Below, in pieces: positions 4,413-41,638 of a DNA stretch of 57,939 nucleotides (the stretch's first letter is position 1; each line of letters starts with the position of its first letter). The notes below the pieces were generated by a model that had not been told where the DNA came from, did not search any database, and saw nothing but the letters and a program-made list of their open reading frames with translations. The stretch comes from an uncultured Bacilli bacterium (GTDB lineage: Bacteria > Bacillota_I > Bacilli_A > RF39 > UBA660): assembly GCA_947630945.1 (NCBI GenBank), contig CANRJN010000001.1, positions 1-57,939 of the forward strand. The letters run 5' to 3'. The position numbers were made by a program, and so were the translations under genes.

Positions 4413-5456
4413 TTAATAATCTGTTTTATATTTATTCAATAAATCATCATAATTTTTATTAGACAATTTCATATAATTTTGTTTAAATCTTTCATATTCT
4501 TGATTCCATGAGTTATATATATATATATTACGATGGTCATCTAAATTATAATTTTCTTTTAAATATTTTGAAAAATATAATGTGTATTTTGTTACGCCAT
4601 TTATATTAAAATGTGCACCATCTTTAAAATCTGTTTGATAATTTATTCCTAACTCTTTGCTATTTTTAAAATTTATGACTTTAAAATTTTTTTCTTTTAA
4701 ATAATTTTCTACATAATTTAATCTTTTTATAGCATAATCATGATAATTTCTTTCAGGAATTACAAACAAAACATTTAATTTTTCTGATTTTATATAATTT
4801 AACAAATCATCTAAAATTTCTTTATTTTCTTTTGGAAGTTCTTCTATTTTGTTATTAGTGTTAGAATTAATATTTACTGTTTTTAACGAATCCTCATTAA
4901 ACCAAAATCCCTTGTAAAAAACTCCTAAATATCTATTAGCAGTACCATCAAAAACATTTTTCCATTTATTATGATACAAAAAATAACTAAAATAATAATC
5001 TAATTTTGATTCGTTAAATTTCTTTTTATAATTTAATGCCACATTTAATAGTTCTAATTTATTTTTTGAAAATTTTAAAGAATCAGTAACTCTTCTTAGA
5101 TTTCCATCACTTTCATCCATAAGATTAATATCATAACCAAATTCAGTTAAAGTTATAACATATAATTTTGGATTTTGATATTTTTGTGCTTCTTTTATTA
5201 AATATTTTAAACAAACAATTGGATGTGAACCAGTAGTTAGAAATGCTGTTGTAAAACCATATTCATTATAAGCTAGTGTAGGATTAAAATGCATAAAAGA
5301 ATTACTTCCACCTAAATATATCACATCAATAGAGTTTTTTGGCTCTTTATAAAAATCGCTTATAGAGGTTTCTTCTAACCATAAAACATTAAAAACTACA
5401 TTAAATAAAATCAAAAAAATAAAAGAAAATAATATAAAATTTATAGCATTTTTCAT
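4413..5456 (-). CDS. Membrane-anchored extracytoplasmic SGNH/DltD-AlgJ-like acyltransferase/esterase, paralog 1 of 5
   Basis: 347 aa with one N-terminal TM helix. YLGGSNS (block-I Ser) and DGAHFN (Asp-x-x-His). Aligns end to end with its four paralogs through shared blocks FYxEPKNSxDVxY, KYQNPKLY, DSxKFSxN, YYFSxxLYHNKWK, LNVLFVIP and NIYIYNSW. Confidence 0.7.
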   Translation of the reverse strand: MKNAINFILFSFIFLILFNVVFNVLWLEETSISDFYKEPKNSIDVIYLGGSNSFMHFNPTLAYNEYGFTTAFLTTGSHPIVCLKYLIKEAQKYQNPKLYVITLTEFGYDINLMDESDGNLRRVTDSLKFSKNKLELLNVALNYKKKFNESKLDYYFSYFLYHNKWKNVFDGTANRYLGVFYKGFWFNEDSLKTVNINSNTNNKIEELPKENKEILDDLLNYIKSEKLNVLFVIPERNYHDYAIKRLNYVENYLKEKNFKVINFKNSKELGINYQTDFKDGAHFNINGVTKYTLYFSKYLKENYNLDDHRNIYIYNSWNQEYERFKQNYMKLSNKNYDDLLNKYKTDY

Positions 5457-5465
5457 TTCTACTCC

Positions 5466-6536
5466 CTAATCAGAAATATTGTTTTTATATTTTAATAAAA
5501 TTGTGTCAAAATCTTTTTTCACATATGAATTGAAATTTTTCTTAAATCTTTCATATTCACTCTTCCATGAATTATATATATATATATTACGACAATCATT
5601 TAAATCATAATTTTCTTTTAAATATTTTCCAAAATAAAGTGTAAATTTTGTTGCTCCATATACATTTAAATGAGCATAATCACATAATTCAGTTTTATAA
5701 TCTATTTTAAAATCTTCTAAATTATTAAAGTTAATAACTTGATAATTTTCTCTTTCAATAAGATTTTTAGCATAATTTAATTTTTTAATACCACCATTAT
5801 CATATGTTCTAGCAGGTATAATAAACAAAACATTTAAATCATTGTCTTTTATATATTTTAATAAATCTAATAAGGCTTTTTCATTAAAATTAGATAATTT
5901 AATAATATCATTATTCCATTCATAGTCATCATATTTTACTATTTTTTCACTAAAACTATATCCTTTATATAAATCATTTCTTTCACGTTTTGCAGTACCT
6001 TTAAATACATCTTTCCATTTATTATGATATAAAACAAAACTAAAATAATAATTTATATAATTTTTATTATTTTCACCATTATTTTCTAACAACTCATTTA
6101 TTAAATTTAACCTATTTAGTGAAAATTTCATTGAATCTACTCCATTTCTAATTCTTCCCTCATCAGGTAAATTATCATTTAATATTTGTCCTAAATCAAT
6201 TACGAAAATTTTTGGATTTTGATATTTTTTTGCTTCTTCTATAAAATATTTAACTGTCAAAAAAGATTGAGAATGGTATGCAAAAAGCCCTGTTGTAAAA
6301 CCATATTCATTATAGGCTAACGTTGGATTAAAATGAGAAATAACATTACTACTTCCAACATAGACTATATCTAATGAATTTTTTGGTTCTTCATAAAAAT
6401 AATTAATAGATGTTTTTTCTAACCATAAGACGTTAAAAACAATTTTAAACAATATTAAAAAAATTGCTACAAAACTAATTATTTTTACTACATTTTTCAT
6501 TACAAACTCCTTTAATCCATTATTTTTTATATTCAT
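5466..6536 (-). CDS. SGNH/DltD-AlgJ-like protein, paralog 2 of 5
   Basis: 356 aa. YVGSSNV and DYAHLN motifs plus an N-terminal TM helix. The real start is probably the internal MKNVVKII (ATG at 6500), which removes the overlap with the upstream paralog. Confidence 0.7.
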   Translation of the reverse strand: MNIKNNGLKEFVMKNVVKIISFVAIFLILFKIVFNVLWLEKTSINYFYEEPKNSLDIVYVGSSNVISHFNPTLAYNEYGFTTGLFAYHSQSFLTVKYFIEEAKKYQNPKIFVIDLGQILNDNLPDEGRIRNGVDSMKFSLNRLNLINELLENNGENNKNYINYYFSFVLYHNKWKDVFKGTAKRERNDLYKGYSFSEKIVKYDDYEWNNDIIKLSNFNEKALLDLLKYIKDNDLNVLFIIPARTYDNGGIKKLNYAKNLIERENYQVINFNNLEDFKIDYKTELCDYAHLNVYGATKFTLYFGKYLKENYDLNDCRNIYIYNSWKSEYERFKKNFNSYVKKDFDTILLKYKNNISD

Positions 6537-7545
6537 TTATTAAATAATCATAATTCTCTTTAAAAATTTTTTTATAATTTTCTTCCAAACGTATATGTTC
6601 TTTTTCCCATGAACTATATATATATATATTACGATGATCACTTAAATTATATTTTTCTTTTAAATATTTTCCAAAATATAAAGTATATTTTGTTGCACCA
6701 AAAATATTTAAATGTCCGCCATCATTAAAATCTTTTAAATAATCTATTTTATAATCTTCTAAATTATTAAAGTTAATAACTGAATAATTTTTATTTTCAA
6801 TTATTTTTGAGGCCTCATTTAATTGTCTTGCAACTGTATTATTAAAAATTCTTGCTGGAATGACAAATAATACATTTAAATCATTCTCTTTTATATATTC
6901 TAATAAATCTAATAATTCTTTATGATTGTATTCTGGTAATTCCCTAGTATCTTCTACCCATTTGTAACTTATTTGTGGTTCAATTTTATCATTAAAAGTA
7001 TATCCCTTATATAAATTTTCATTTTCATTTTTTAAATCGCCACTTAAAATATCTTTCCATCTATTATGATATAAATTAAAACTAAAATAATAATTTATAT
7101 AATCAGTATATGGAACACTATAGTGTGATAATTTTTTATTTATAAGTTTAATACGATTTAAAGAAAATTTCATTGAATCTGCTCCTGTTCTTATTTCACC
7201 TGAATCAATATTTTTATGCTCATTAATAATTTGTGCAATATCAATGATATAAAGTTTTGGATTTTGATATTTTCTTACTTCTTCTATAAAATATTTAATT
7301 GTATCAAATGATTGTGAATAAGTAGCATATATACTAGTAGTAAATCCATATTCTTTATATGCTAATGTTGGAATATAATGTGCTATTACATTACTAGATC
7401 CAATATAAGCAACGTCCATAGAATTTTTTGGTTCCTCATAAAAATAACTAATTGATGTTTTTCTTAACCAAAGAGTATTAAAAACTTCTATAAATAAAAT
7501 AACAAAAATAATTAAAAATAGCGTTGCTTTTATTACTTTTTTCAT
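6520..7545 (-). CDS. SGNH/DltD-AlgJ-like protein, paralog 3 of 5
   Basis: 341 aa. YIGSSNV and DGGHLN motifs, N-terminal TM helix, same conserved blocks as its neighbours. Confidence 0.7.
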   Translation of the reverse strand: MKKVIKATLFLIIFVILFIEVFNTLWLRKTSISYFYEEPKNSMDVAYIGSSNVIAHYIPTLAYKEYGFTTSIYATYSQSFDTIKYFIEEVRKYQNPKLYIIDIAQIINEHKNIDSGEIRTGADSMKFSLNRIKLINKKLSHYSVPYTDYINYYFSFNLYHNRWKDILSGDLKNENENLYKGYTFNDKIEPQISYKWVEDTRELPEYNHKELLDLLEYIKENDLNVLFVIPARIFNNTVARQLNEASKIIENKNYSVINFNNLEDYKIDYLKDFNDGGHLNIFGATKYTLYFGKYLKEKYNLSDHRNIYIYSSWEKEHIRLEENYKKIFKENYDYLINEYKK

Positions 7546-7570
7546 TAATTATTAATTCCTTTCATGTTGT

Positions 7571-8611
7571 TTAATAATTATTTAAATAATAATCAAAATT
7601 TTGTTTAGTCATATTTTCAAAATCTTTTTTAAACCTTTCATATTCTTTATCCCATGAATTATATATATTCGAATTTTCATTTTTAATATTGTATTTTTCA
7701 CTTATATATTTTCCAAAATAAAGTGTAAATTTTGTTGCTCCATATACATTTAAATGTGATGAATCTTTAAAATCTGTACCATAATCTATATTCAAATCTT
7801 CAACTTCGTTAAAATTAATTACATCATAATTATAAGAATTTATAATTTTTGAGGTATTATTTAATTTTTGTTGATATTCTGTTGAATAAAGTCTAGGTGG
7901 TATTATAAATACTACATTTAAATCATTTTCTTTTATATAATTTAATAAATCATATAATATCTCTTTTTCTTCATTATTTATTTCAATTTCTTTTGTACTC
8001 CATTTTTCTTCATTTTGTGGTCTAATTCTTATAGAGCCTTCTTTTTCATCAAATATAAAACCCTTATAAATTGTATCATCTTCTCTTTTTATTGATCCAT
8101 CAAACAAATACTTCCATTTATTATGATATTTTAAAAAACTAAAATAATAATTAATGTAATTTCTATCTTTTTCATCATAATATTTTAATATATTATTAAT
8201 TAAGTTTATTCTGTTTAATGAAAATTTCATTGAATCAGTTATATTTCTAGTTCTTCCTTCATCATAAACTATGTCTTCATTATTAATTTGTACTAAATCG
8301 ATTACATAAAGTTTCGGATTCTGATATTTTTGTGCTTCTTTTATTAAATATTTTATTGCAATAAATGATTGAGAATGCCATGATAAAAGACTAGTAGTAA
8401 ATCCATATTTATTAAATGCAAGAGTTGGATTAAAATGCATAACAACATTACTTGAACCTAAATAAACAACATCTATTGAATTTTTGGGTTCTTCATAAAA
8501 ATAACTTATAGAATTTTTTCTTAACCATAATTTATCAAAAACAAAAGAAAATATTAAAATAAATATAATGCAAAATATAATACTTTTTATAATTTTTTTC
8601 ATATACTTCAC
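7571..8611 (-). CDS. SGNH/DltD-AlgJ-like protein, paralog 4 of 5
   Basis: 346 aa. YLGSSNV and DSSHLN motifs with an N-terminal TM helix. It is the only paralog lacking the IYIY/(TA)n tract (NIYNSW instead). Confidence 0.7.
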   Translation of the reverse strand: MKYMKKIIKSIIFCIIFILIFSFVFDKLWLRKNSISYFYEEPKNSIDVVYLGSSNVVMHFNPTLAFNKYGFTTSLLSWHSQSFIAIKYLIKEAQKYQNPKLYVIDLVQINNEDIVYDEGRTRNITDSMKFSLNRINLINNILKYYDEKDRNYINYYFSFLKYHNKWKYLFDGSIKREDDTIYKGFIFDEKEGSIRIRPQNEEKWSTKEIEINNEEKEILYDLLNYIKENDLNVVFIIPPRLYSTEYQQKLNNTSKIINSYNYDVINFNEVEDLNIDYGTDFKDSSHLNVYGATKFTLYFGKYISEKYNIKNENSNIYNSWDKEYERFKKDFENMTKQNFDYYLNNY

Positions 8612-11331: not shown

Positions 11332-12375
11332 CTAATAAATATCATACTCTTTTATCAATTTTTCAAAATCTTTATTAGTTAATTCTTTAAATTTTTCTTT
11401 AAATTTTATATATTCTCGGTTCCAAGAATTATATATATATATATTGTCACGATGATTTGGTAAATTATAATTTTCTTTTAAATATTTTGAAAAATATAAT
11501 GTATATTTTGTTGAACCATAAATATTTAAATGAGAAGTATTATAAAAATCTGTTTCAAAGTTAATATTTAAATCTTCTAATGTATTAAAATTAACAACAT
11601 TTAAATTATTTTCATTTATTATTTTAATAACTTCATTTAACCTTTTGTCACTATCTTTTGAATATGTTCTAATAGGAACTACAAAAACAACATTAAGGTT
11701 ATTTTGTTTTATATAATCTATCAAATTTTGTAAAACTATTTTATTTTCTTCTTGAAGCGAATTTGACTCAGATGACCAATTATATTTATCCATTTTATAA
11801 GTTTCCACTGTTTTTTCAATTATTTCAAAACCTTTAAACAACTCTCTATTTTCAATTTCTCCGTTTAATAAATCTTTCCATCTATTATGGTATATCAAAA
11901 AACTAAAATAATAATTTATATATTCTTCTTTTGCGGTATCTTTATATGATAATATTTTATTAATTACATCTATTCTATTTTGCGTAAATTTCATTGAATC
12001 AGGAAGTTGTCTAAATTCCCCATCAGTATATGCAGACAAATTATCAGCTGCTTTTGCTAAATCTATTATATATAATTTTGGATTTTGATACTTTTGAGAT
12101 TCTTTAATTAAGTATTCTGTTCCAGCAAAATTTTGAGCATCAGTAGTCATTAGACCTGTTGTAAATCCATATTTTTCAAATGCAAGTGTTGTATTAAAAT
12201 GTTGATATGCATTACTATGTCCTATATAAATAACATCTAAGGAATTTTTAGGTTCTTCATAAAAATAACTTAATGGTGTTTTTTTTATCCATAAATAATT
12301 AAAAATGACATTCCACAAAACAATAAAAATCAAAACAAAAGAAATTATTTTAAAAATAATTACATATTTTTTCAT
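11332..12375 (-). CDS. SGNH/DltD-AlgJ-like protein, paralog 5 of 5 (separated from the tandem four)
   Basis: 347 aa. YIGHSNA and NTSHLN (Asn where the others have Asp), N-terminal TM helix, NIYIYNSW block. Confidence 0.7.
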   Translation of the reverse strand: MKKYVIIFKIISFVLIFIVLWNVIFNYLWIKKTPLSYFYEEPKNSLDVIYIGHSNAYQHFNTTLAFEKYGFTTGLMTTDAQNFAGTEYLIKESQKYQNPKLYIIDLAKAADNLSAYTDGEFRQLPDSMKFTQNRIDVINKILSYKDTAKEEYINYYFSFLIYHNRWKDLLNGEIENRELFKGFEIIEKTVETYKMDKYNWSSESNSLQEENKIVLQNLIDYIKQNNLNVVFVVPIRTYSKDSDKRLNEVIKIINENNLNVVNFNTLEDLNINFETDFYNTSHLNIYGSTKYTLYFSKYLKENYNLPNHRDNIYIYNSWNREYIKFKEKFKELTNKDFEKLIKEYDIY

Positions 12376-20381: not shown

Positions 20382-20410
20382 ATTATAACTTATATATATA
20401 TATATTGCAA
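20382..20410 (-). promoter_or_regulatory. Near-consensus sigma-A promoter whose 17-nt spacer is mostly a (TA)7 tract
   Basis: Minus strand reads TTGCAA (20410-20405), tatatatatatataagt (17 nt), TATAAT (20387-20382). It lies ~90 nt upstream of the CDS starting at 20290 and just downstream of the LCP terminator. Confidence 0.55.
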
Positions 20411-20458
20411 GACTAAATTAAAAAAACTATTATTCACATTTATCATCGCTAGCCATTA

Positions 20459-23089: not shown

Positions 23090-23428
23090 TTATATTGCGA
23101 TTAAAAATGCACCAATTATTATAGAAACTATTCCTATAATTTTTTTCTTTGTAATATTCTCATTTAAAAATTTATTAGAAATTATTAAAGTCCAAACATA
23201 AGTTAATGAATTTAATGGCAATACAATAGAATAATTTAAATATTTTAATAAATATATATTAATTAAAGCACCTATTATATATAATAGTCCTCCTACATAT
23301 AAATATTTATTTTTTATTAAATCTTTGAACTTATTATTAGAAGATTTTTTTAAAAAATAAGATGCAATTGAACCAATAAATGTCATAAATAATAATATAA
23401 CATAATACTTAATCATTCTCACCACCAC
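23090..23428 (-). CDS. Small 4-TM EamA/SMR-like transporter subunit (ArnE/ArnF-like)
   Basis: 112 aa, four hydrophobic helices. Overlaps its paralogous partner by 20 nt, giving the paired half-size DMT architecture. Confidence 0.65.
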   Translation of the reverse strand: MVVRMIKYYVILLFMTFIGSIASYFLKKSSNNKFKDLIKNKYLYVGGLLYIIGALINIYLLKYLNYSIVLPLNSLTYVWTLIISNKFLNENITKKKIIGIVSIIIGAFLIAI

Positions 23429-23750
23429 TTATTAAAATAACTCCAATTATTATTATAAATATTCCTATAAAATCCTTTACTAATATTTTTTCATGTAAGA
23501 CAATTGAACCAAAAATAATAGTAAAAATATAATTTGAACTTAATATTGGTTGTAATATTGATAATTCGCCATATTTATAAGCAACAATCATAAATAAAGC
23601 ACCTATTCCATATAATAAAAATCCAATCAATAAATATATTAAATTTTTATCAATTGAAATTTTCCAAAATAATTGTCCAATGCAAACACAAAAAGAAGAA
23701 AAAATCATCAATATAATTCCTTTTTTATTTTTTTTAATAGAATTTAGCAT
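23409..23750 (-). CDS. Small 4-TM EamA/SMR-like transporter subunit (ArnE/ArnF-like)
   Basis: 113 aa. GQLFWKISI...LSILQPILSSNYIFT...GIFIIIIGVILI resembles a single EamA repeat. Confidence 0.65.
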   Translation of the reverse strand: MLNSIKKNKKGIILMIFSSFCVCIGQLFWKISIDKNLIYLLIGFLLYGIGALFMIVAYKYGELSILQPILSSNYIFTIIFGSIVLHEKILVKDFIGIFIIIIGVILISGGEND

Positions 23751-23770: not shown

Positions 23771-25795
23771 TTATATTAAATTAAGTACATTATAATGAGA
23801 TATAGTTTGAATAAAAATAAATATTAATGAAATTGATAATATTGATAGAATACAATAAACTATATATAAGCATAATTTATTATTATCTTTTGAAAATAAT
23901 ATTTTTTTGAAATATTTATAAAACAAATAACAAAATGTATATATTAAAAGAATTATTAATAAAATAGCTATCATTCTATTGGGATTTGAAAAATTACGAT
24001 AATAATTATCTTTATTTGTTAAGGGAGATACTATATATAAAACTTGTTTGAAATTAATTGCATTTTTTATTACTTCAATGATTAAAATTGTAAAGAGTAA
24101 AATATTTATAAACTTTATCTTTTTTATTTCTTCAAAATTTATAATACATAATAAAAATGGTAAAAATATAAAATGACAAGTATATATGAATATTTGGGAA
24201 TTTCCATAAAACATATGTAAAATAAAATTGTAAAAAATAGATAATAATATTGTAACATTTAATATTCTATTCTTTTTAAAATTTTTTATAAAAAAGGCTA
24301 CAATTATTAAATAGAATAAACAAGTAAATATTAGTGATAAAATATCTACGTTTTTGAATGCTATACTCTCTTTTTCATTTAAAATAACAGAAGATGAAAT
24401 TATTGAATTAATATATCCATTTTTAATAAGATTTAAAGTTCTATCTTTATTAATTTCAAAATCAATATAATTTTTTTCACTAATATAATTATCTGTTGAT
24501 AAACCTAATATAGGGGTATTGCGCCATATAAAATTTTGTAAATGAGATAATAAAATAGATGAAATAATAATTGTTATTCCTATTAATATCGCCTTTTTTA
24601 AATTTATTTTCTTTGATATTAAAAGCATAAATAAAATAATTAAAAAGGCTATTACATTAGTTACTGTTATAGATATACTTAAAATTCCCAAAATACATAA
24701 ATAAATTAAATCTAAATTTGTTGCTTTTTCTTTTTTAAATATTAATATTGTTAAAAGCCACAATAATATAAAAAATAATCCAGCAATGTTATAAGTTTCT
24801 GCAACAGATCCAAAAATAATATTTGTAAAGGAAAAACCAAAAATTAAAGAAATTATTATTTTAGAAACATTATTTTTTATAAATATCGTTGTTATTTTAT
24901 ACATTAAACTTATAGTAAAAGCACTAATAAATGCTGAAAAAATTATAGCAGCAATTGTAGCATTATGTGATATTCCTTTTAAAATTAATACAAATGGTGA
25001 TGTAATCAAAACAAACAATGGATGTACTTTTATTCTTTTATGTGGAGCAAATATATCAGTCATATCATCTAAAACTCTACCAATATCCAATCCAAAAATT
25101 ATATCCATTTTTGTCTCAACACTATAAATATAAGTTAAATGTACTCCTAATATCAAATATATTGTAAAAAAGAATAAAAATATTAAAAATGCAATTTTAT
25201 TATCTTTTTTCTTTTTAAATTTTTCATCTGTCCATTCTTCTATTTTACCATTACATACTATATAGGATTTTTTTGATTTTTCTGCTAAAAATCTATCACT
25301 ATAAGAATCTGAATAAAATTTTTCTATTTTTATGTTTTTAGGCAATTGATTTAATTTTTCTATTCCTTTACAATTTTCTCCTTTAATTTTTCCTGTTTTT
25401 TTATCCATATCTGTTGCTATTAATTTAACTTTTTTTAAATTATTAACATATCCTTCTAATAAAAATTTAGGAGAAGCACTTATAATATAAATAGTAGGTC
25501 TTCCTTCTATATCTAATATTTCATTAAAAAAATTATATATTTTATTTTTATTTTTATTCCAAAATAATCTTACCATTTCATCTATATTTTCAAATTCCTT
25601 TAAAAAACTAAAAAAATGTTCTTTGAATTCTTTTGTTGATATAATTTTTAAAGTATGTAAAATAAAATAATAAATAATAGCTGGAATATATTTCAATAAT
25701 TTAAATTTTTTTCTTAAACAAAATAAAAAGAAATTTATTGAACTATCACCATCATAAATTGTTTTATCAAAATCATAAATATATACTTTTTCCAT
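23771..25795 (-). CDS. Fusion: cytoplasmic HAD-type phosphatase domain + large polytopic GT-C-like membrane domain
   Basis: 674 aa. N-terminal YIYDFDKTIYDGDS (HAD DxDxT) within ~195 aa, then more than 10 predicted TM helices with an acidic first loop (GLDIGRVLDDMTDIF). Overlaps the UbiA gene by 23 nt. Confidence 0.55.
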   Translation of the reverse strand: MEKVYIYDFDKTIYDGDSSINFFLFCLRKKFKLLKYIPAIIYYFILHTLKIISTKEFKEHFFSFLKEFENIDEMVRLFWNKNKNKIYNFFNEILDIEGRPTIYIISASPKFLLEGYVNNLKKVKLIATDMDKKTGKIKGENCKGIEKLNQLPKNIKIEKFYSDSYSDRFLAEKSKKSYIVCNGKIEEWTDEKFKKKKDNKIAFLIFLFFFTIYLILGVHLTYIYSVETKMDIIFGLDIGRVLDDMTDIFAPHKRIKVHPLFVLITSPFVLILKGISHNATIAAIIFSAFISAFTISLMYKITTIFIKNNVSKIIISLIFGFSFTNIIFGSVAETYNIAGLFFILLWLLTILIFKKEKATNLDLIYLCILGILSISITVTNVIAFLIILFMLLISKKINLKKAILIGITIIISSILLSHLQNFIWRNTPILGLSTDNYISEKNYIDFEINKDRTLNLIKNGYINSIISSSVILNEKESIAFKNVDILSLIFTCLFYLIIVAFFIKNFKKNRILNVTILLSIFYNFILHMFYGNSQIFIYTCHFIFLPFLLCIINFEEIKKIKFINILLFTILIIEVIKNAINFKQVLYIVSPLTNKDNYYRNFSNPNRMIAILLIILLIYTFCYLFYKYFKKILFSKDNNKLCLYIVYCILSILSISLIFIFIQTISHYNVLNLI

Positions 25796-26642
25796 ATAAT
25801 ACCACTCCTATATAAATAATATAAACAAGTATACTAATCAATAAAATTTTGTCATGCAATAAAGTTTCTACAGGATCAGATAAATATGCATCAGTATTTT
25901 CAATATCTAAACTATATTTCATAACAATAAATATAATTATGAAAATACTATATAATAATAAATCACTTTCAAAATTCATGCACCATAAAGAATAAAAAAC
26001 TAATGTTAAAGCCAAATAAATATGCATAAATTTATCTAAAAATTGAGAATTATAGTATTTTAAAACTTTTCTTGATGTATCTTTGCTTTTTTGAAGTTCA
26101 CCTTTTCTTTTTCCTAAAACTAAATACAATGAAAAACTTAATACTGTTAAATACAACCAATTTGATATTTCAATATTTAAAAAGCTTCCACCAAAATATA
26201 CTCTAAGTATAAAACCCATTGCTAAAATTAAAATATCTAATATAGGAATATGCTTGGCATAAAAACTATAAAATATGTTAATTAATATATATGCAAAAAC
26301 AATAAGTGTTGAATATATAAATGTATTTATTGTCAACATATTAAAATGTAATAATGAACACTGAATTAAAATTATTAGTAGTAATAATACTAATACAAAA
26401 TATTTTGCTTCACTCTTTTTTATTTTTCCTGATGCAATAGGTCTATTTTTTTTAATTGGATGTATCCTATCTTTTTCATAATCTTGTATATCATTAATTA
26501 TATAAATTGTTGAAGCAGCAAAGCAAAAGACAACAAATTCAATTGTTGTTAATAATAACATATTAAAATCAAAAAAATTACCACTAAATATTAATGGTAA
26601 AAAAATTAAAAGATTTTTTATATAATGTTTGACACGTGCCAA
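25773..26642 (-). CDS. UbiA-family prenyltransferase, decaprenyl-phosphate phosphoribosyltransferase (DPPR synthase)-like
   Basis: 289 aa. YIKNLLIFLPLIF N-terminal block and INDIQDYEKDRIHPIKKNRPIASG (NDxxDxxxD) motif. The ORF-track start is a TTG without a Shine-Dalgarno, so the start region is problematic (see findings). Confidence 0.75.
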   Translation of the reverse strand: MARVKHYIKNLLIFLPLIFSGNFFDFNMLLLTTIEFVVFCFAASTIYIINDIQDYEKDRIHPIKKNRPIASGKIKKSEAKYFVLVLLLLIILIQCSLLHFNMLTINTFIYSTLIVFAYILINIFYSFYAKHIPILDILILAMGFILRVYFGGSFLNIEISNWLYLTVLSFSLYLVLGKRKGELQKSKDTSRKVLKYYNSQFLDKFMHIYLALTLVFYSLWCMNFESDLLLYSIFIIIFIVMKYSLDIENTDAYLSDPVETLLHDKILLISILVYIIYIGVVLYGKSIYL

Positions 26643-26645
26643 AGT

Positions 26646-26662
26646 TATATATATATATATAT
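26646..26662. repeat. (TA)8 dinucleotide tract between an SD-ATG and the UbiA reading frame
   Basis: tatatatatatatatat read directly. It lies between ATG 26671-26669 (AGGAG 7 nt upstream) and the TTG at 26642. Confidence 0.9.
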
Positions 26663-26681
26663 GCGATTCATTTTTTTACTC

Positions 26682-27434
26682 CTATTGTATATTTTTAGAA
26701 TTCTTTTTACTTCTCTTTACACTATTTTGCTTTTTTAACTCTTCTATTTCTTCTTTTATACCCATTTTATTAATATATGCATGTTCTCTTTTGAATACTG
26801 TTGCAATTGTTTTGAATATAATTTTTACATCTTGCATTAAAGAATAATTTTTTACATATTCTAAATCATAATTTATTTTTTCAAAAATTGATATACTATT
26901 TCTTCCGTTTACTTGTGCAAGTCCTGTAATTCCAGGTAAAACGCTAACTCTCTTTCTTTGAGTTTTATTCATATTTTCATAATATTCTGGAATCCATGGT
27001 CTAGGTCCAACAAAAGACATTTCACCTTTTAAAATATTAATTAATTGAGGAAGTTCATCTAATGATGTTAATCTTAATAATTTTCCTACTTTTGTAAATT
27101 CATCTTCTTTACTGAAATCTCTTACATCGTTATTTATTTTCATTGATCTAAATTTTATTAAATTAAATGTTTTACCATTCTTTCCTGTTCTTTCTTGTTT
27201 AAAAAATACTGAATCTTTATCACCAGACAATAAAAATGATATTTTAACTATTGCAATTATAGGTATTAAACCAATAACACCTAAAAAAGCAACAAAAACA
27301 TCAAATGTTCTTTTAAAAATACTATATACTATTTTAGATATTTTTGTTTTATTTTTTGTCTTTGCTTTTATATTTTCATTAACAATATCAATATAATTAG
27401 TATCATCCATAAAAACTGCCTCATTATTTTCCAT
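26682..27434 (-). CDS. Initiating polyprenyl-phosphate phosphoglycosyl transferase (bacterial sugar transferase, WbaP/PglC-like)
   Basis: 250 aa with one TM/re-entrant helix. FFKQERTGKNGKTFNLIKFRSM and LDELPQLINILKGEMSFVGPRP are Bac_transf signature blocks. Confidence 0.9.
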   Translation of the reverse strand: MENNEAVFMDDTNYIDIVNENIKAKTKNKTKISKIVYSIFKRTFDVFVAFLGVIGLIPIIAIVKISFLLSGDKDSVFFKQERTGKNGKTFNLIKFRSMKINNDVRDFSKEDEFTKVGKLLRLTSLDELPQLINILKGEMSFVGPRPWIPEYYENMNKTQRKRVSVLPGITGLAQVNGRNSISIFEKINYDLEYVKNYSLMQDVKIIFKTIATVFKREHAYINKMGIKEEIEELKKQNSVKRSKKNSKNIQ

Positions 27435-27464
27435 GATAAACTAACACCCCTTAAATTTTGTTAT

Positions 27465-27493
27465 ATTATATCATACAATTATATTTTTTTCAA
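27465..27493 (-). promoter_or_regulatory. Proximal sigma-A-type promoter of the sugar transferase operon
   Basis: Minus strand reads TTGAAA (27493-27488), 17-nt spacer, TATAAT (27470-27465). A GGGGTG Shine-Dalgarno lies at ~27445 before the ATG at 27434. Confidence 0.5.
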
Positions 27494-27656
27494 CCTATAA
27501 ATTATATCTATAAGTAATTATAATATAACATTTAAATTAATGTTATGTCAATTATATTTTATGGAAAATCAAATTTTAAGTTAAGTATGTGTAAATTAAT
27601 TCTATTTTCACAATAATTTTACATTCAAAATTTAATTTTCTATTTCTATTATATCG

Positions 27657-27671
27657 TATATATATATATAT
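27657..27671. repeat. (TA)7 tract forming the spacer of a distal promoter-like element
   Basis: tatatatatatatat read directly. It is flanked on the minus strand by TTGATA (27674-27669) and TATAAT (27653-27648) with a 15-nt spacer. Confidence 0.85.
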
Positions 27672-27674
27672 CAA

Positions 27675-27691
27675 GGGTAAGTTGTAAACTT
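27675..27691. repeat. Left copy of a 17-bp target-site duplication of the IS
   Basis: gggtaagttgtaaactt is identical to 29209-29225 (18 bp if the preceding a is included). Confidence 0.8.
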
Positions 27692-29208
27692 TGTTAAACC
27701 TTTTTTAAAATGTCAGTATAAGATTTTTTAGAAATGTCAGTATTATTATATGATAGAATATACCTTTGGAAAGGAGGTATATTTTTAATATTATATGAAA
27801 AAAGATAAAGAAAAAGCTCTTAATCTTTTAAAACAAAAAGTAAATGGTGAAATTAAAATTACATATCGTGAAATAACTAAACAAACTGGTTATCAAGAAA
27901 GGCAATTAATAAGATTATCTCAACAAATAGAAAAAAAGGATATTTCTTCTTTATTAGTTCATGGTTTATTAGGTAAACCTTCAAATAACTCTGTTCCCAC
28001 CAAAGAATTAGATTATATTAAGAACTTTAAAAAAAAATATCCGAGTATTACTATATCACAATTTATGGATATTTACCACGAAGATGTTATTTGGAATAAA
28101 AATAAACAAGATGATGTAAAAAACTATAATCTTAAAGTAAGAAGTAAATCTTTCTTTCAACAATTATATAAAAAAGAAGGTTGGAAATCTCCCATAAAAC
28201 ATAAATGTTTTAAAGGTGAAAAACAGGTTCATTCTTTAAGAGATCCATCTCCTAGAAGAGGTATCCTTATTATGGTTGATGGTACTCCTCATGATTGGTT
28301 TGGTAATGGTAAAAAGTTTTCTCTACATATGGCGATTGATGATGCAACAGGTGAAATTCTTGCTGGCTGGTTTATGCCTACTGAATGTTTATTAGGTTAC
28401 TGTCATTTATTTAAAATTTTATTTGAAAAATATGGAATACCTATCTCTATTTATTCCGATAGAACTACTATTTTATGGGACCCAAAAGATGGCGAGCTAA
28501 CCGAAGTCGGAAGAATGTTAGATGAACTTGGCATTGAACTCATTTATGCTAATTCTCCAGAAGCAAAAGGTAAAATTGAAAAAATGAATTTTACAATTCA
28601 AAATAGATTATTAAATGATATTATTAGATTTAATATTAAAACTTATGATGAATTAAACAAATGGTTTAATAATTATTATATTGAATATATAAATAAAAAA
28701 TTTGCTTATAAGCCAAAAGAAGAGGAAACGGAATTTGTACCTTTAGATGGTCAAGATTTATCTAATATATTTTGTATCAAAGCCACAAGAACTATTTTAA
28801 ATGGTAATATGATATCTATTAATAATGAATATTATATTCCTATTGATGAATATGGAAATGATTATGTATTTTACAAAGGTACAAGTGTTGAAGTTTGGCA
28901 AGATGTATTCAATCCTAAATTAGTTAGAATATTTAAAAATAATAAAATTTATGGTACAAGACACATTCAAGGTCATAGAAGTGATCCTGTTAAACGAGAA
29001 CAAAAAAGAATTGATGATCAAAAGATGCTTGAACAAGTTTTAAGAGAAAGAGATGAAAGATTAAAAGCAAGGGCGAGACGAAGTTGAGTTTATCTTGACC
29101 CTTGCTTTTTAGATTTCATTAACTACAATTTTTTATTTCAAACAAAGCTTGCTTTTGTTTGTTACCTATCAATTAATTAAAAACTGACATTTCTAAAAAA
29201 TCTTAACA
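27692..29208 (+). mobile_element. Insertion sequence, IS1202/ISNCY-like, 1517 bp
   Basis: Imperfect 26-bp terminal inverted repeats: tgttaaaccttttttaaaatgtcagt at the left, and the reverse complement of the right end is tgttaagattttttagaaatgtcagt (21/26 match, starts TGT). One DDE transposase gene, flanked by identical 17-bp direct repeats. Confidence 0.8.
27795..29087 (+). CDS. DDE (rve/integrase-core type) transposase with N-terminal HTH
   Basis: 430 aa. Candidate catalytic residues lie in IMVDGTPHDWF, IYSDRTTILW and NSPEAKGKIEKMN. A GCAAGGG...CCCTTGC hairpin plus T-run spans the stop. Confidence 0.8.
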   Translation: MKKDKEKALNLLKQKVNGEIKITYREITKQTGYQERQLIRLSQQIEKKDISSLLVHGLLGKPSNNSVPTKELDYIKNFKKKYPSITISQFMDIYHEDVIWNKNKQDDVKNYNLKVRSKSFFQQLYKKEGWKSPIKHKCFKGEKQVHSLRDPSPRRGILIMVDGTPHDWFGNGKKFSLHMAIDDATGEILAGWFMPTECLLGYCHLFKILFEKYGIPISIYSDRTTILWDPKDGELTEVGRMLDELGIELIYANSPEAKGKIEKMNFTIQNRLLNDIIRFNIKTYDELNKWFNNYYIEYINKKFAYKPKEEETEFVPLDGQDLSNIFCIKATRTILNGNMISINNEYYIPIDEYGNDYVFYKGTSVEVWQDVFNPKLVRIFKNNKIYGTRHIQGHRSDPVKREQKRIDDQKMLEQVLRERDERLKARARRS

Positions 29209-29225
29209 GGGTAAGTTGTAAACTT
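29209..29225. repeat. Right copy of the 17-bp target-site duplication
   Basis: gggtaagttgtaaactt is identical to 27675-27691. Confidence 0.8.
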
Positions 29226-29256
29226 AAAGTCTAAATTATAAAATTTTTACATATCA

Positions 29257-30918
29257 TTACTTTATATATTTGTTTAAATTTTTTATTGCAATATTAAATT
29301 CACTATACATGGCAGGTCTTTTAACAAAATATTTTTCATTAATTTCTTTTAATATTGATTTAACAGTTTCATTAGAATTTTTCATTTGGATTATATGATT
29401 TACATTTCTTGCAAGATTACGATACTCTCTTCTATTATTTGCATACTCTGCATATTTTAAGCAAGAATATTTATAATTATATAATAATTTATTATTATAT
29501 TTTGGAAGTAAATATTTTTCATAATTTATAATATAATTCATACCATGACTATATACATTTAAATATAACTCATCATACATTTTTTCTTCTATAAATATTT
29601 CATTTAATTTCTTTTCACTTGACTCATCTTTTCTTAAATTTTCTATTATTTTATTTCTTTCTATATCCCAATCTTTATTATTATAAAGTTTCTTAATTTT
29701 AAGATATGTATCTATATCATATTTATCAAATTTATAAAAGATTTTATATAATATATCTTTATATTCGTTAATCTGATTATTTGCTAAATATATTTCAGAT
29801 AATTTATTTGCATAAGTTTTACTATCATAATTATTTTCATCTAATCTTTCTTCTAATTTTTTAATTGCATCAAATACTTTATTATTTTTTATTAATTCAT
29901 CAATATATTTTATAAAAACATCTGAATCATATGAATATTTTTCTAAAACTTGAATTATTTTTTCTTTTTCCTCCTTAAACTCATAAATTTTAGTTAAATA
30001 ATTAACATAATTTATTCTCTTATAAAAATATATTTTATCATTAGAACTATCAAGTTTTATTTCTAAAAATTTTTTTATTTCATCTAAATATAATTTATCA
30101 TAAATAAAATATTCTAATATAGGTTCTAAATCTACTCCATAATTATATAAATTATCTGTTTTTAATTCATCTATTACATAATCAAAAATCATTTTTAATA
30201 TATCACTATTTTTATTATCAATCTCATCTAAAATATCAAAAATTATTTCAATAGAATTTTCTGCTATAACTGATGTTGAACCACTCGAATCATCAATATT
30301 AGTATTAGGAATTGAATCTAAAATAGTCATAATAATTATTAATGCAGTTTTATAGTCCTCATTATCTACTAATTTACTTGCTTCATCAATAAATTCATTC
30401 ATAGTATGTTCATATTTAAATGTATTAGTATAATCAATATATCCATCTCTATTACAACATCTATCAATAGCATTATAAATTTTATTTTCATATTCTTCTT
30501 TTGATAATTTTGGAAAATATTTACTAAATTCTATTCTAAATCTATTTAATAATTCACTATCATTTTTTAAATTTTCATAAATAAATTTTTTTATTTCTTT
30601 TTCAGGTACCACATTAACAATATTTTCTAAATTATAATCGTTATTTTCTTTATCTATTCCTTTATCATTTAAATAATATAATAATGCAGCCATATGTTTA
30701 CAATATTCACCAGATTCAAAATAAGGGCAACTACATTCTCCATCAATAAAAATATTATCTATAATTTCAAGTTCAACTTTATAATCATAATTTCCAATTA
30801 CTATTGCACTAACAATATTATCATTTACTACTATATTACTAACTCTATTTTCACAATAATATTCATATCCTCTTTTCAAAATATAATCATTAAAATCATT
30901 TTCAAACTTTATTTTCAT
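29257..30918 (-). CDS. SWIM zinc-finger protein with long alpha-helical repeat C-terminal region
   Basis: 553 aa. CSCPYFESGEYCKHMAALLYYL fits the CxCx(n)CxH SWIM motif. The rest is helical and low in complexity. Confidence 0.7.
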   Translation of the reverse strand: MKIKFENDFNDYILKRGYEYYCENRVSNIVVNDNIVSAIVIGNYDYKVELEIIDNIFIDGECSCPYFESGEYCKHMAALLYYLNDKGIDKENNDYNLENIVNVVPEKEIKKFIYENLKNDSELLNRFRIEFSKYFPKLSKEEYENKIYNAIDRCCNRDGYIDYTNTFKYEHTMNEFIDEASKLVDNEDYKTALIIIMTILDSIPNTNIDDSSGSTSVIAENSIEIIFDILDEIDNKNSDILKMIFDYVIDELKTDNLYNYGVDLEPILEYFIYDKLYLDEIKKFLEIKLDSSNDKIYFYKRINYVNYLTKIYEFKEEKEKIIQVLEKYSYDSDVFIKYIDELIKNNKVFDAIKKLEERLDENNYDSKTYANKLSEIYLANNQINEYKDILYKIFYKFDKYDIDTYLKIKKLYNNKDWDIERNKIIENLRKDESSEKKLNEIFIEEKMYDELYLNVYSHGMNYIINYEKYLLPKYNNKLLYNYKYSCLKYAEYANNRREYRNLARNVNHIIQMKNSNETVKSILKEINEKYFVKRPAMYSEFNIAIKNLNKYIK

Positions 30919-31062
30919 TTACTACTCCTAAATATTTATATAAATATTGTATCATATATAATAGTATTAATAAATTATATTTGATTTTATTAATTTTTTT
31001 GATTTATATTAATTATATAGTATAATGATAGTAGAAATTAACAAATAATGTAGGAGAAGTAT

Positions 31063-31557
31063 ATGATAGATATTAAAGATTTAAAACATTTAGCAAAACA
31101 AAAAGAAAATGAAAATTATAGATTTAGACAATTTTTAAAAATACATGCTGATGAAGAAGAATTAGATAAACAGTTTAAAGAATTGCATAATAAATATTTT
31201 AAAATATATGATTGTAAAAAATGTAGAAATTGTTGTAAAGAAATTGGAATTAGTATGGATGAAAATGAATTAAATAAAATATGCGAATATTTAAAATTAG
31301 ATAAGAATAAATATATTCAAGAACATTTAAATGAAAAATATGGAGAATATACATTTAAAGAAAAAAGATGTAAATTTTTAGATGAAAATAATAATTGTAA
31401 AGTTAAAGAATGTTTACCTAAAAGTTGTAAAGAATATCCATATACTGATAAAGAAGAAAGATTATTTAGTTTATATTCTGTTATTTCAAATGCAAGTGTT
31501 TGTCCTGTTGTATATGAAATATTAGAAGAACTTAAAAAAATATATAATTTTAGGTAA
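31063..31557 (+). CDS. YkgJ-family (UPF0153) cysteine-cluster protein
   Basis: 164 aa. CKKCRNCC plus CKFLDENNNCKVKECLPKSCKEYP cysteine clusters. GGAG Shine-Dalgarno upstream. Confidence 0.7.
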   Translation: MIDIKDLKHLAKQKENENYRFRQFLKIHADEEELDKQFKELHNKYFKIYDCKKCRNCCKEIGISMDENELNKICEYLKLDKNKYIQEHLNEKYGEYTFKEKRCKFLDENNNCKVKECLPKSCKEYPYTDKEERLFSLYSVISNASVCPVVYEILEELKKIYNFR

Positions 31558-31784
31558 TATAATTGTTTTTATAGTGGTTATTTTCATTATTAGTAGTAAA
31601 CAATATTTTTTATAAAATGGTTATTGTGCATTTAGCAAACTTTTTGCTGTGCAAATAACATCTCGTCCTCTAAAGTAATTCATAAATACTTTGACTATAT
31701 TAGTCTAATTAAGTTCTACTAATATTTAGAAAAGTTTATGTTAGTTTAGAAAAATTTCTAATTTTTGAGAATTAAAGTATAACG

Positions 31785-40883: not shown

Positions 40884-40952
40884 CATTTTACATTTTGAGA
40901 AAAAATCATTTTACATTTTGAGAAAAAATTGTTTTACACTTTGAGAAAATTT
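40884..40952. repeat. Three tandem 23-bp direct repeats in a divergent intergenic region
   Basis: cattttacattttgagaaaaaat occurs twice exactly (40884-40906, 40907-40929), followed by a degenerate third unit tgttttacactttgagaaaattt. Confidence 0.85.
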
Positions 40953-41029: not shown

Positions 41030-41638
41030 ATGAAAAAGATATTTATAATATTGTTATTAGTATTATCAATAACTAATATTAAAGCATATGAAAATGATTA
41101 TTTTAAGATAGATATTCCAAGTGATTTTAAAAAAGAACAAGTTGAAGATAACATATATAAATGGACAAATAATAACAAATATATTGCTATTACTATTGCA
41201 GATAATTCTAATTTAAAATATGATATATCATCTTATACTGATACTGATATAGAAAAACAAAAAGAATATTTAATGAAAAATTTAAATACAGGACTTGAAG
41301 ACTATAAAGTTAATGTAGAAGTACCATATATTAAAAAAATAGATTTAAATGATAAAACTATTTTAAGATATAGTTTATATTATCCAACAAAAGAATCAAC
41401 AGGATATGATATATATCAAATTGGAAATGTATTTACTACTAAGAATTACATAATTACTATTATTTATAGTAGTGATAATGAAATAAATGATAGTGAATAC
41501 TCATTTATAAATAATTTTGAAATTAAAGATGATAAAGTAATTAGTATTGATAGAATTAAATATATTTATTATATTGTAGCAATTGGAATAATATTAGGTG
41601 TTATTGGATATATTTTATCACTTAAAAAACGCAAATAA
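41030..41638 (+). CDS. Exported protein with C-terminal TM anchor, unknown function
   Basis: 202 aa. Signal peptide MKKIFIILLLVLSITNIKA and C-terminal helix IVAIGIILGVIGYILSLKKRK. GAGGTG Shine-Dalgarno upstream. Confidence 0.6.
   Translation: MKKIFIILLLVLSITNIKAYENDYFKIDIPSDFKKEQVEDNIYKWTNNNKYIAITIADNSNLKYDISSYTDTDIEKQKEYLMKNLNTGLEDYKVNVEVPYIKKIDLNDKTILRYSLYYPTKESTGYDIYQIGNVFTTKNYIITIIYSSDNEINDSEYSFINNFEIKDDKVISIDRIKYIYYIVAIGIILGVIGYILSLKKRK

Follow-up and report, generated by a model that had tools for sequence, protein, structure and literature searches.

A TA-repeat tract at the start of a UbiA-family gene in an uncultured rabbit-gut bacterium: a probable frameshift switch read from metagenomes

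The window analysed here, by which we mean the whole stretch of DNA under study, is a 57,939-bp contig with a G+C content of 21.5% from an uncultured Bacilli bacterium. On its minus strand, a UbiA-family gene starts at an ATG preceded by a Shine-Dalgarno (SD) sequence and soon runs into a tract of eight TA units, written (TA)8 below, which breaks its reading frame. We regard it as probable that the allele in the window is the OFF state of a simple-sequence-repeat frameshift switch located at this start. Alleles with seven units, (TA)7, in which the frame is open, also exist in nature, and the number of units does not follow the haplotype in which the tract is embedded.

Structure of the gene start

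The UbiA-family gene (25773..26671, minus strand; Pfam UbiA, E 2e-22) lies in an operon behind a Bac_transf gene (27434..26682, minus strand; Pfam PF02397, E 7e-61) for a polyprenyl-phosphate sugar-phosphate transferase, whose match to the NCBIfam model EPS_sugtrans (E 4e-72) is under the curated cut-off. The stop codon TAG of this upstream gene (26684-26682) is overlapped by the SD sequence AGGAG of the UbiA-family gene (26683-26679), from which a 7-nt spacer leads to the ATG (26671-26669) and its next codons, AAT and CGC. The (TA)8 tract (26646..26662) reads (AT)8A on the coding strand and spans codons 4-8 (I-Y-I-Y-I) of the ATG frame; Tandem Repeats Finder (TRF) reported a period of 2, 8.5 copies and 100% matches. 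In the (TA)8 allele, a premature TAA (26647-26645) terminates the frame after the eight codons MNRIYIYI, and the gene as a whole is frameshifted in the window. Two nucleotides (CT) past the TAA, a TTG (26642-26640) opens a frame of 289 aa running to 25773. This codon is Leu10 of the intact protein and is read as Leu in the (TA)7 allele. When one TA unit is removed, the ATG frame begins MNRIYIYITLARVKHYIKNLL... and continues for 298 aa.

A first-pass annotation, made from the sequence of the window alone, had described AGGAG-N7-ATG, the (TA)8 run, the TAA and the TTG, and had stated that one TA fewer restores the ATG frame. All of its coordinates were correct when they were read on the minus strand and checked against the list of open reading frames (ORFs); its arithmetic was also correct, and the product of the restored frame is on record as P0124. 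It had further described the TTG as being without an SD, which is borne out by the 15 nt on its 5' side, ATATATATATATAACT, where no purine-rich SD is present; the TTG is at most a weak re-initiation site. The same source took the TTG for the annotated start. This holds for the output of mechanical ORF finders and for the gene calls (P0001, P0123) of the European Nucleotide Archive (ENA), whereas in the NCBI contig record an internal Met is taken as the start (P0122, 262 aa).

The 16-mer (TA)8 has one copy in the window and was found in 0 of 100 dinucleotide-preserving shuffles, and for (TA)6 there are 15 matches at 7 loci of the window against 0.35 expected. A promoter and terminator scan of the operon gave no enrichment over shuffles. 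No intergenic terminators were found in the operon, which is compatible with a single transcript and is no evidence by itself.

Comparison with homologs

The (TA)7 reading was used as the query in a homolog search, and its four closest homologs (66-81% identity) all have 298 aa, the same length as that reading. Their N-termini align to it without a gap; for example, P0004 has MNRIRQYLVLLRVKHYIKNLL where the (TA)7 reading has MNRIYIYITLARVKHYIKNLL. The in-frame N-terminus predicted in the first-pass annotation, MNRIYIYITLARVKHY..., is therefore homologous, residue for residue, to these orthologs of 298 aa. The DNA of the (TA)7 allele can be aligned to the orthologs with no gap, while (TA)8 appears as a 2-nt insertion. 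The orthologs start in frame, at a homologous ATG or GTG that has an SD of its own (AGGAG, GGATGGTG or GAGAGG), and those examined are without a TA tract, a leader ORF, a TTG start or a frame break. An out-of-frame layout shared among orthologs, with a conserved TTG and a leader peptide, had been named beforehand as the outcome that speaks against phase variation; no such layout was seen.

The spacing of conserved residues gives the same picture. The Arg of the R..HYIKN block stands at least 7 residues from the initiator Met in 116/116 homologs, with a mode of 8. Ahead of this Arg, 115/116 homologs have a Tyr at a distance of five residues, and 115/116 have a Leu at a distance of two. Both residues are present in the ATG form. 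In the TTG form, on the other hand, the Arg comes at position 3, the Tyr is lost and the Leu becomes the initiator. The near-invariant Tyr is encoded by the repeat itself. Because of the gap-free 298-aa homologs, the conserved Tyr and Leu, and the Arg spacing in 116 homologs, we conclude that the ATG at 26671-26669 is, as judged from these alignments, the ancestral start of the UbiA-family gene.

Two tract lengths in natural populations

The runs that hold the window sequence are rabbit gut metagenomes, and an allele-centred run search with the window sequence led to the same two samples only, which are S1 (two runs, X1 and X2) and S2 (X3/X4). Tract lengths were read from assembled contigs: the window, the three further assemblies L001, L003 and L012, the ENA contig L002 of assembly ERZ27249647, and the Logan contigs of S1 and S2. 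All supporting contigs are of low coverage, with a SPAdes k-mer coverage of 1.8-3 or a Logan word depth of about 4-5. Some animals or samples may be shared among these assemblies and runs; nevertheless, each length was found in more than one assembly. Runs X5-X8, which have 4-13% of words in common and were compared at 80% likeness, gave no contig over the tract. A pattern of exact flanks with a variable gap had 0 matches among the JGI metagenome contigs, and no record was found when the SWIM protein and the 250-aa form of the sugar transferase were looked up for extra contigs.

The exact 298-aa protein that was predicted, starting MNRIYIYITLARVKHY, is P0124, a member of the 90% cluster of the TTG protein. 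It is encoded on L002, an independent rabbit-gut contig that differs from the window near the gene by one missing TA unit, a few single-nucleotide polymorphisms (SNPs) and a second 2-nt deletion downstream. Over 1298 nt, the contigs of both S1 runs differ from the window solely by the absence of 2 bases at 26646. In total, (TA)7 was found on three contigs (L002 and both runs of S1) and (TA)8 in five assemblies (the window, L001, L003, L012 and S2). The phase-OFF reading offered in the first-pass annotation is supported by this, since the (TA)7 allele is present in other samples of the same habitat and encodes the N-terminus that had been predicted.

The tract length was then compared with its surroundings. 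L012 and L002 share the same upstream haplotype, with no insertion sequence (IS), the same 3 SNPs and (TA)5.5 at a second polymorphic TA tract (27657..27671), which lies about 220 nt upstream of the first gene of the operon and is (TA)7.5 in the window and S2. These two contigs differ by only 4 SNPs in 2981 nt, yet they have 8 and 7 TA units, respectively, and the SWIM gene of each has about 97% identity to that of the window. The window and S2 represent the other haplotype, about 3% divergent in the SWIM gene, and they also have (TA)8. Because 7 and 8 units occur on one haplotype and 8 on another, the tract must, given an in-frame ancestor, have changed at least twice or have recombined.

It was also found that the neighbouring kilobases differ by a handful of substitutions only (3-4 SNPs). 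In 13 kb compared, there was one other indel, besides two 1-base differences inside the multi-copy IS. No indel was seen in 7.4 kb with four in-frame (TA)7.5 tracts (4514, 5573, 6615 and 11430), nor at the intergenic TA tract at 20391 in the same runs. The tract at the gene start combines a perfect repeat in an ORF, a unit change that toggles between an intact and a truncated frame, and a polymorphism independent of haplotype, three structural features that characterise phase-variable genes based on repeats.

The two haplotypes differ by about 3% over the SWIM-gene region (29224-31646) and by about 0.1-0.2% over the adjacent operon (24360-27667). This suggests a recombination boundary near the site of the IS and the second TA tract.

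Proposed mechanism

We infer replication slippage as the cause of the length changes. The (TA)n run in codons 4-8 would be a slipped-strand hotspot, at which mispairing gains or loses units. With 7 or 10 units the frame would be intact and the 298-aa enzyme would be made, while with 8 or 9 units it would be broken. At eight units (+2 nt), a ribosome coming from the SD-ATG would halt after 8 codons, and the enzyme would be absent or present in traces via re-initiation at the TTG. The difference in expression between (TA)7 and (TA)8 is thus one expected from the reading frame, and the change is presumed to be reversible within a lineage.

The protein scores 80 bits against Pfam PF01040 (cut-off 34). 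In NCBIfam it matches three decaprenyl-phosphate phosphoribosyltransferase models best, in each case under the equivalog cut-off; the scores are, for example, 187 bits for NF008978 (cut-off 207) and 180 for NF008977 (cut-off 234). The best relative in the PDB is 8j8j (Rv3806c of M. tuberculosis), with E 6e-34 over residues 10-290, and the first Asp-rich motif NDxxDxxxD is kept (NDIQDYEKD, aligned with NDVRDVEAD of 8j8j). The gene product therefore resembles the polyprenyl-phosphate phosphoribosyltransferases as a putative relative and not as a certified equivalog. As the first enzyme of its module, it would make the switch one that toggles a surface-glycan decoration off and on, possibly with a selective advantage. 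The next gene, which encodes a HAD phosphatase fused to a membrane domain, overlaps the end of the UbiA gene by 23 nt. Because of this overlap, the 870 nt left untranslated in the OFF allele would probably also lower the expression of the downstream genes.

Alternative explanations

Several observations weigh against a switch. In about seven assemblies, some of which perhaps overlap in their samples, no lengths other than 7 and 8 were seen. Each sample showed one length at a word depth of about 4.5x, with no within-sample mixture seen in the contigs, and the contig coverage is low (k-mer 2.5-3 for the ENA contigs). The tract is young and is not a conserved device, because it is absent from orthologs at 72-88% identity. 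Lesions are also found elsewhere in the module. L002 has a 2-nt (AA) deletion in the HAD-fusion gene at window 25623, and L003 has a 1-nt deletion in the same gene (the lesion positions of L003 are window 24796 and 25181). In L010 (1-225), unrelated sequence stands in place of the 5' end of the UbiA gene, and in the sister lineage L013 (2671-2802), which has no TA tract, the UbiA ortholog carries a TAG nonsense codon at codon 44. These lesions fit relaxed or negative selection equally well as adaptive switching; they lie on low-coverage contigs, and chimeras or errors are possible. Finally, the membrane domain of the HAD fusion, as a GT-C transferase, is an unproven candidate.

The serious rival is therefore the plain loss of a dispensable gene, which we consider unlikely and yet live. 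According to it, the pathway is dispensable or counter-selected, the tract is simply the likeliest site for a frameshift, and (TA)8 is a young pseudogene. Besides the lesions listed above and the absence of the tract from orthologs, it has in its favour that the OFF length is in the majority, with (TA)8 in the window, L001, L003, L012 and S2 and (TA)7 in L002 and S1. Against it, the length is decoupled from the haplotype, with at least two events at one 16-nt site. In addition, the 289 codons are intact in every OFF allele, with no further lesion in the UbiA ORF, and in S1, which is ON, those parts of the downstream gene that were covered showed no lesion.

A more speculative reading, to which we give little credence, is that (TA)8 is leaky and yields a little enzyme, either by re-initiation from UAA to UUG or by a +/-2 realignment of the transcript or the peptidyl-tRNA on (UA)8. 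The tract length might then act as a graded dial for a pentofuranose decoration of the surface and not as a binary switch, and the hits in the module (the repeat frameshift, the nearby IS, the other indels and the nonsense codon of the sister lineage) might mark a hotspot driven by phages or antibodies.

The first-pass annotation had also offered a leader peptide coupled to the TTG. As a design, MNRIYIYI would be a regulatory upstream ORF, the 289-aa enzyme would be translated from the TTG by coupling to its termination, and (TA)8 would be the wild type. The stop and the TTG are separated by 2 nt, a spacing compatible with bacterial termination-reinitiation. Also, since residue 10 of the long form is the first that aligns to 8j8j, the aligned core is retained in the TTG product, and some leaky expression of the OFF allele may take this route. 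As a designed mechanism, however, it is disfavoured and very improbable. The orthologs start in frame without a leader ORF, a TTG start or a frame break; 0/116 homologs have fewer than 7 residues before the Arg, where the TTG form has 2 and loses the near-invariant Tyr; and an in-frame allele exists in nature. When the initiation region was folded as RNA, it reached -7.6 kcal/mol with a z of -0.53, which is no significant or special structure.

The last alternative raised in that annotation, a sequencing or assembly error in the dinucleotide run with one true length, can be set aside almost entirely: dinucleotide runs are prone to PCR stutter and the coverage is low throughout (k-mer 1.8-3, word depth about 4-5), but each length was reproduced, (TA)8 in five assemblies and (TA)7 on three contigs including both S1 runs, the four (TA)7.5 tracts and the tract at 20391 kept their length in the same runs, and there was one other indel in 13 kb besides the two 1-base IS differences.

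We also considered whether the tract is mere codon usage of I-Y-I-Y-I. This holds for the in-frame tracts of the paralogs described below (NIYIYN). For the tract at the gene start, it accounts for the origin at 21.5% G+C and not for the frame break or the length polymorphism.

The module and its neighbourhood

The gene that follows the UbiA-family gene (23771..25795, minus strand) encodes a 674-aa protein that joins a HAD-IB phosphatase domain (Pfam HAD, E 8e-13) to a polytopic membrane domain of 480 aa. In the orthologous locus, the HAD has a gene of its own, to which the HAD part here is 61% identical. Next come two small membrane proteins of the EamA type, with 113 and 112 aa (23090..23750, minus strand; Pfam EamA, E 1e-11 to 1e-13). 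They have weak ArnE/ArnF matches below cut-off, there is no MATE protein, and the pair is a candidate flippase for a lipid-linked sugar. The gene order UbiA-HAD-EamA-EamA is conserved in the orthologous loci L007/L008. In L003, an in-frame loss of a 9-bp repeat unit was further seen in this module.

The membrane domain (23771-25213) matched a TMEM260-like family with E 0.013, below cut-off, and no PDB sequence. Its AlphaFold model has a low pLDDT of 52.7, and nothing significant was returned by Foldseek (yeast ALG3, TM 0.30). Among 5.8 billion proteins it has four homologs, all of them HAD fusions, and BLASTP found it unrelated to the 472-aa membrane protein that lies upstream of UbiA in the orthologous loci. 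It looks like a fast-diversifying, acceptor-specific component.

The remainder of the window is a cell-envelope glycopolymer locus, with glycosyltransferases, a UDP-glucose dehydrogenase, an MBOAT protein, an LCP protein, a sulfatase-type transferase and others. Kelly et al. 2024 (PMC11127046) describe pentofuranose systems with three components, namely a synthase with its HAD phosphatase, a flippase and a GT-C transferase. By analogy, the module resembles such side-chain systems, which decorate cell-surface glycans with pentofuranose outside the membrane, and its biochemical role would be of this kind.

Comparison with known systems

For the genes of the module, the closest likeness is to ORF12-15 of Citrobacter youngae O1/O2 and to the mycobacterial decaprenyl-phospho-arabinose pathway (Rv3806c and others), in which a UbiA-family enzyme, a HAD phosphatase, a small transporter and a large membrane protein adjoin (PMC11127046). 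C. youngae has a synthase-HAD fusion and a MATE-type flippase, whereas here the HAD is fused to the membrane protein and the EamA pair is the candidate; the mycobacterial flippase is of the SMR type (PMC11127046). The rabbit-gut module also differs from the pentofuranose systems in that no epimerase was identified in it and in that the GT-C fold of its membrane domain is a candidate. No repeat-based switching is described for the pentofuranose systems in PMC11127046.

For the repeat, the nearest case is wciZ of S. pneumoniae, a capsule O-acetyltransferase behind the switching between serotypes 15B and 15C, whose TA repeats have been counted (van Selm et al. 2003, as cited in PMC5266551). Both are coding-region (TA)n tracts whose unit number sets the frame, in a gene for the modification of a surface polysaccharide. 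Both hosts are Gram-positive with low G+C, and wciZ, as the gene here would, serves side-chain decoration and not backbone synthesis. On the other hand, wciZ encodes an acetyltransferase and the gene here a UbiA-family phosphoribosyltransferase, if its relatives are a guide; the wciZ tract is outside the first 10 codons; and switching was observed in pneumococcal isolates, while here the polymorphism is between samples only.

The oipA gene of H. pylori has a 5' CT repeat that turns it on and off by frame through slipped-strand mispairing, with both states in natural strains (PMC10564699). The two cases are alike in that a dinucleotide repeat a few codons after the start sets on and off by frame. 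They differ in the unit (CT and not TA) and in the product, since in oipA the repeat lies in the signal peptide of an outer-membrane protein and here in an enzyme of the cytoplasmic membrane. Furthermore, H. pylori is a pathogen with many such loci and is known to be without mismatch repair.

The gtr operons for O-antigen glucosylation in Salmonella are reportedly phase-variable, and they are said to be an on/off module of a lipid-linked donor, a flippase and a GT-C enzyme for surface-glycan side chains, as the module here would be. Their control is epigenetic, by Dam methylation and OxyR at the promoter, and not by a coding-region repeat.

Significance

Repeat-driven switching of surface structures is textbook knowledge for a few cultured pathogens and is poorly charted in uncultured gut commensals. 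The mechanism itself is not surprising; it is the host and the gene that are unusual. The switched gene would be the first step of a pathway to a lipid-linked pentofuranose donor, a pathway type that was generalised beyond mycobacteria only in 2024, and both switch states can be read from public metagenomes of different animals. In annotation pipelines, such genes receive a wrong start or are cut short (262 aa, or 289 aa from the TTG); if the repeat were taken into account, the 298-aa gene would be recovered and its state could be flagged. The locus offers a testable handle on whether, in the rabbit gut, pressure from the host or from phages favours losing a sugar decoration of the cell wall.

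Insertion sequence and other repeats

An IS of the ISNCY family occupies window 27675-29225, with its transposase at 27795..29087. It is flanked by 17-bp direct repeats AAGTTTACAACTTACCC (29225-29209 and 27691-27675, minus strand), and it lies 3 nt from the (TA)7.5 tract at 27657-27671. L002, L012 and one of the X4 contigs do not have the IS. In S1, the ends of this IS are found on either side of window 20410-20425, in the same orientation and 4 nt from the (TA)7.5 tract at 20391-20405. Both target sites share the flanks ATTATAnCn-(TA)7.5-CAAGnnTAAnTT, which suggests that, at these sites, the IS inserts in a targeted manner next to a TA-centred motif. The depth of the IS is 50-120, where the baseline is about 4.5.

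Around the MBOAT gene (4413-8611 and 11332-12375, minus strand) there are five paralogs in tandem, each about 347 aa long and with no Pfam or NCBIfam match. Four of them have an in-frame (TA)7.5 encoding NIYIYN about 100 nt before the stop, which is invariant in S1 and S2. The fifth (7571..8611) has NIYN, and this fits an in-frame loss of three TA units. There are TA tracts of at least 7 units at seven places in the window, while the 58 kb contain a single homopolymer of at least 9, which is A9 (28029-28037) within the IS transposase gene. It seems that TA runs are tolerated here and long runs of one base avoided. Another tandem repeat, CATTTTACATTTTGAGAAAAAAT, has a unit of 23 bp and lies at 40884-40949 with 2.9 copies and 93% matches, in the intergenic region before the plus-strand gene at 41030.

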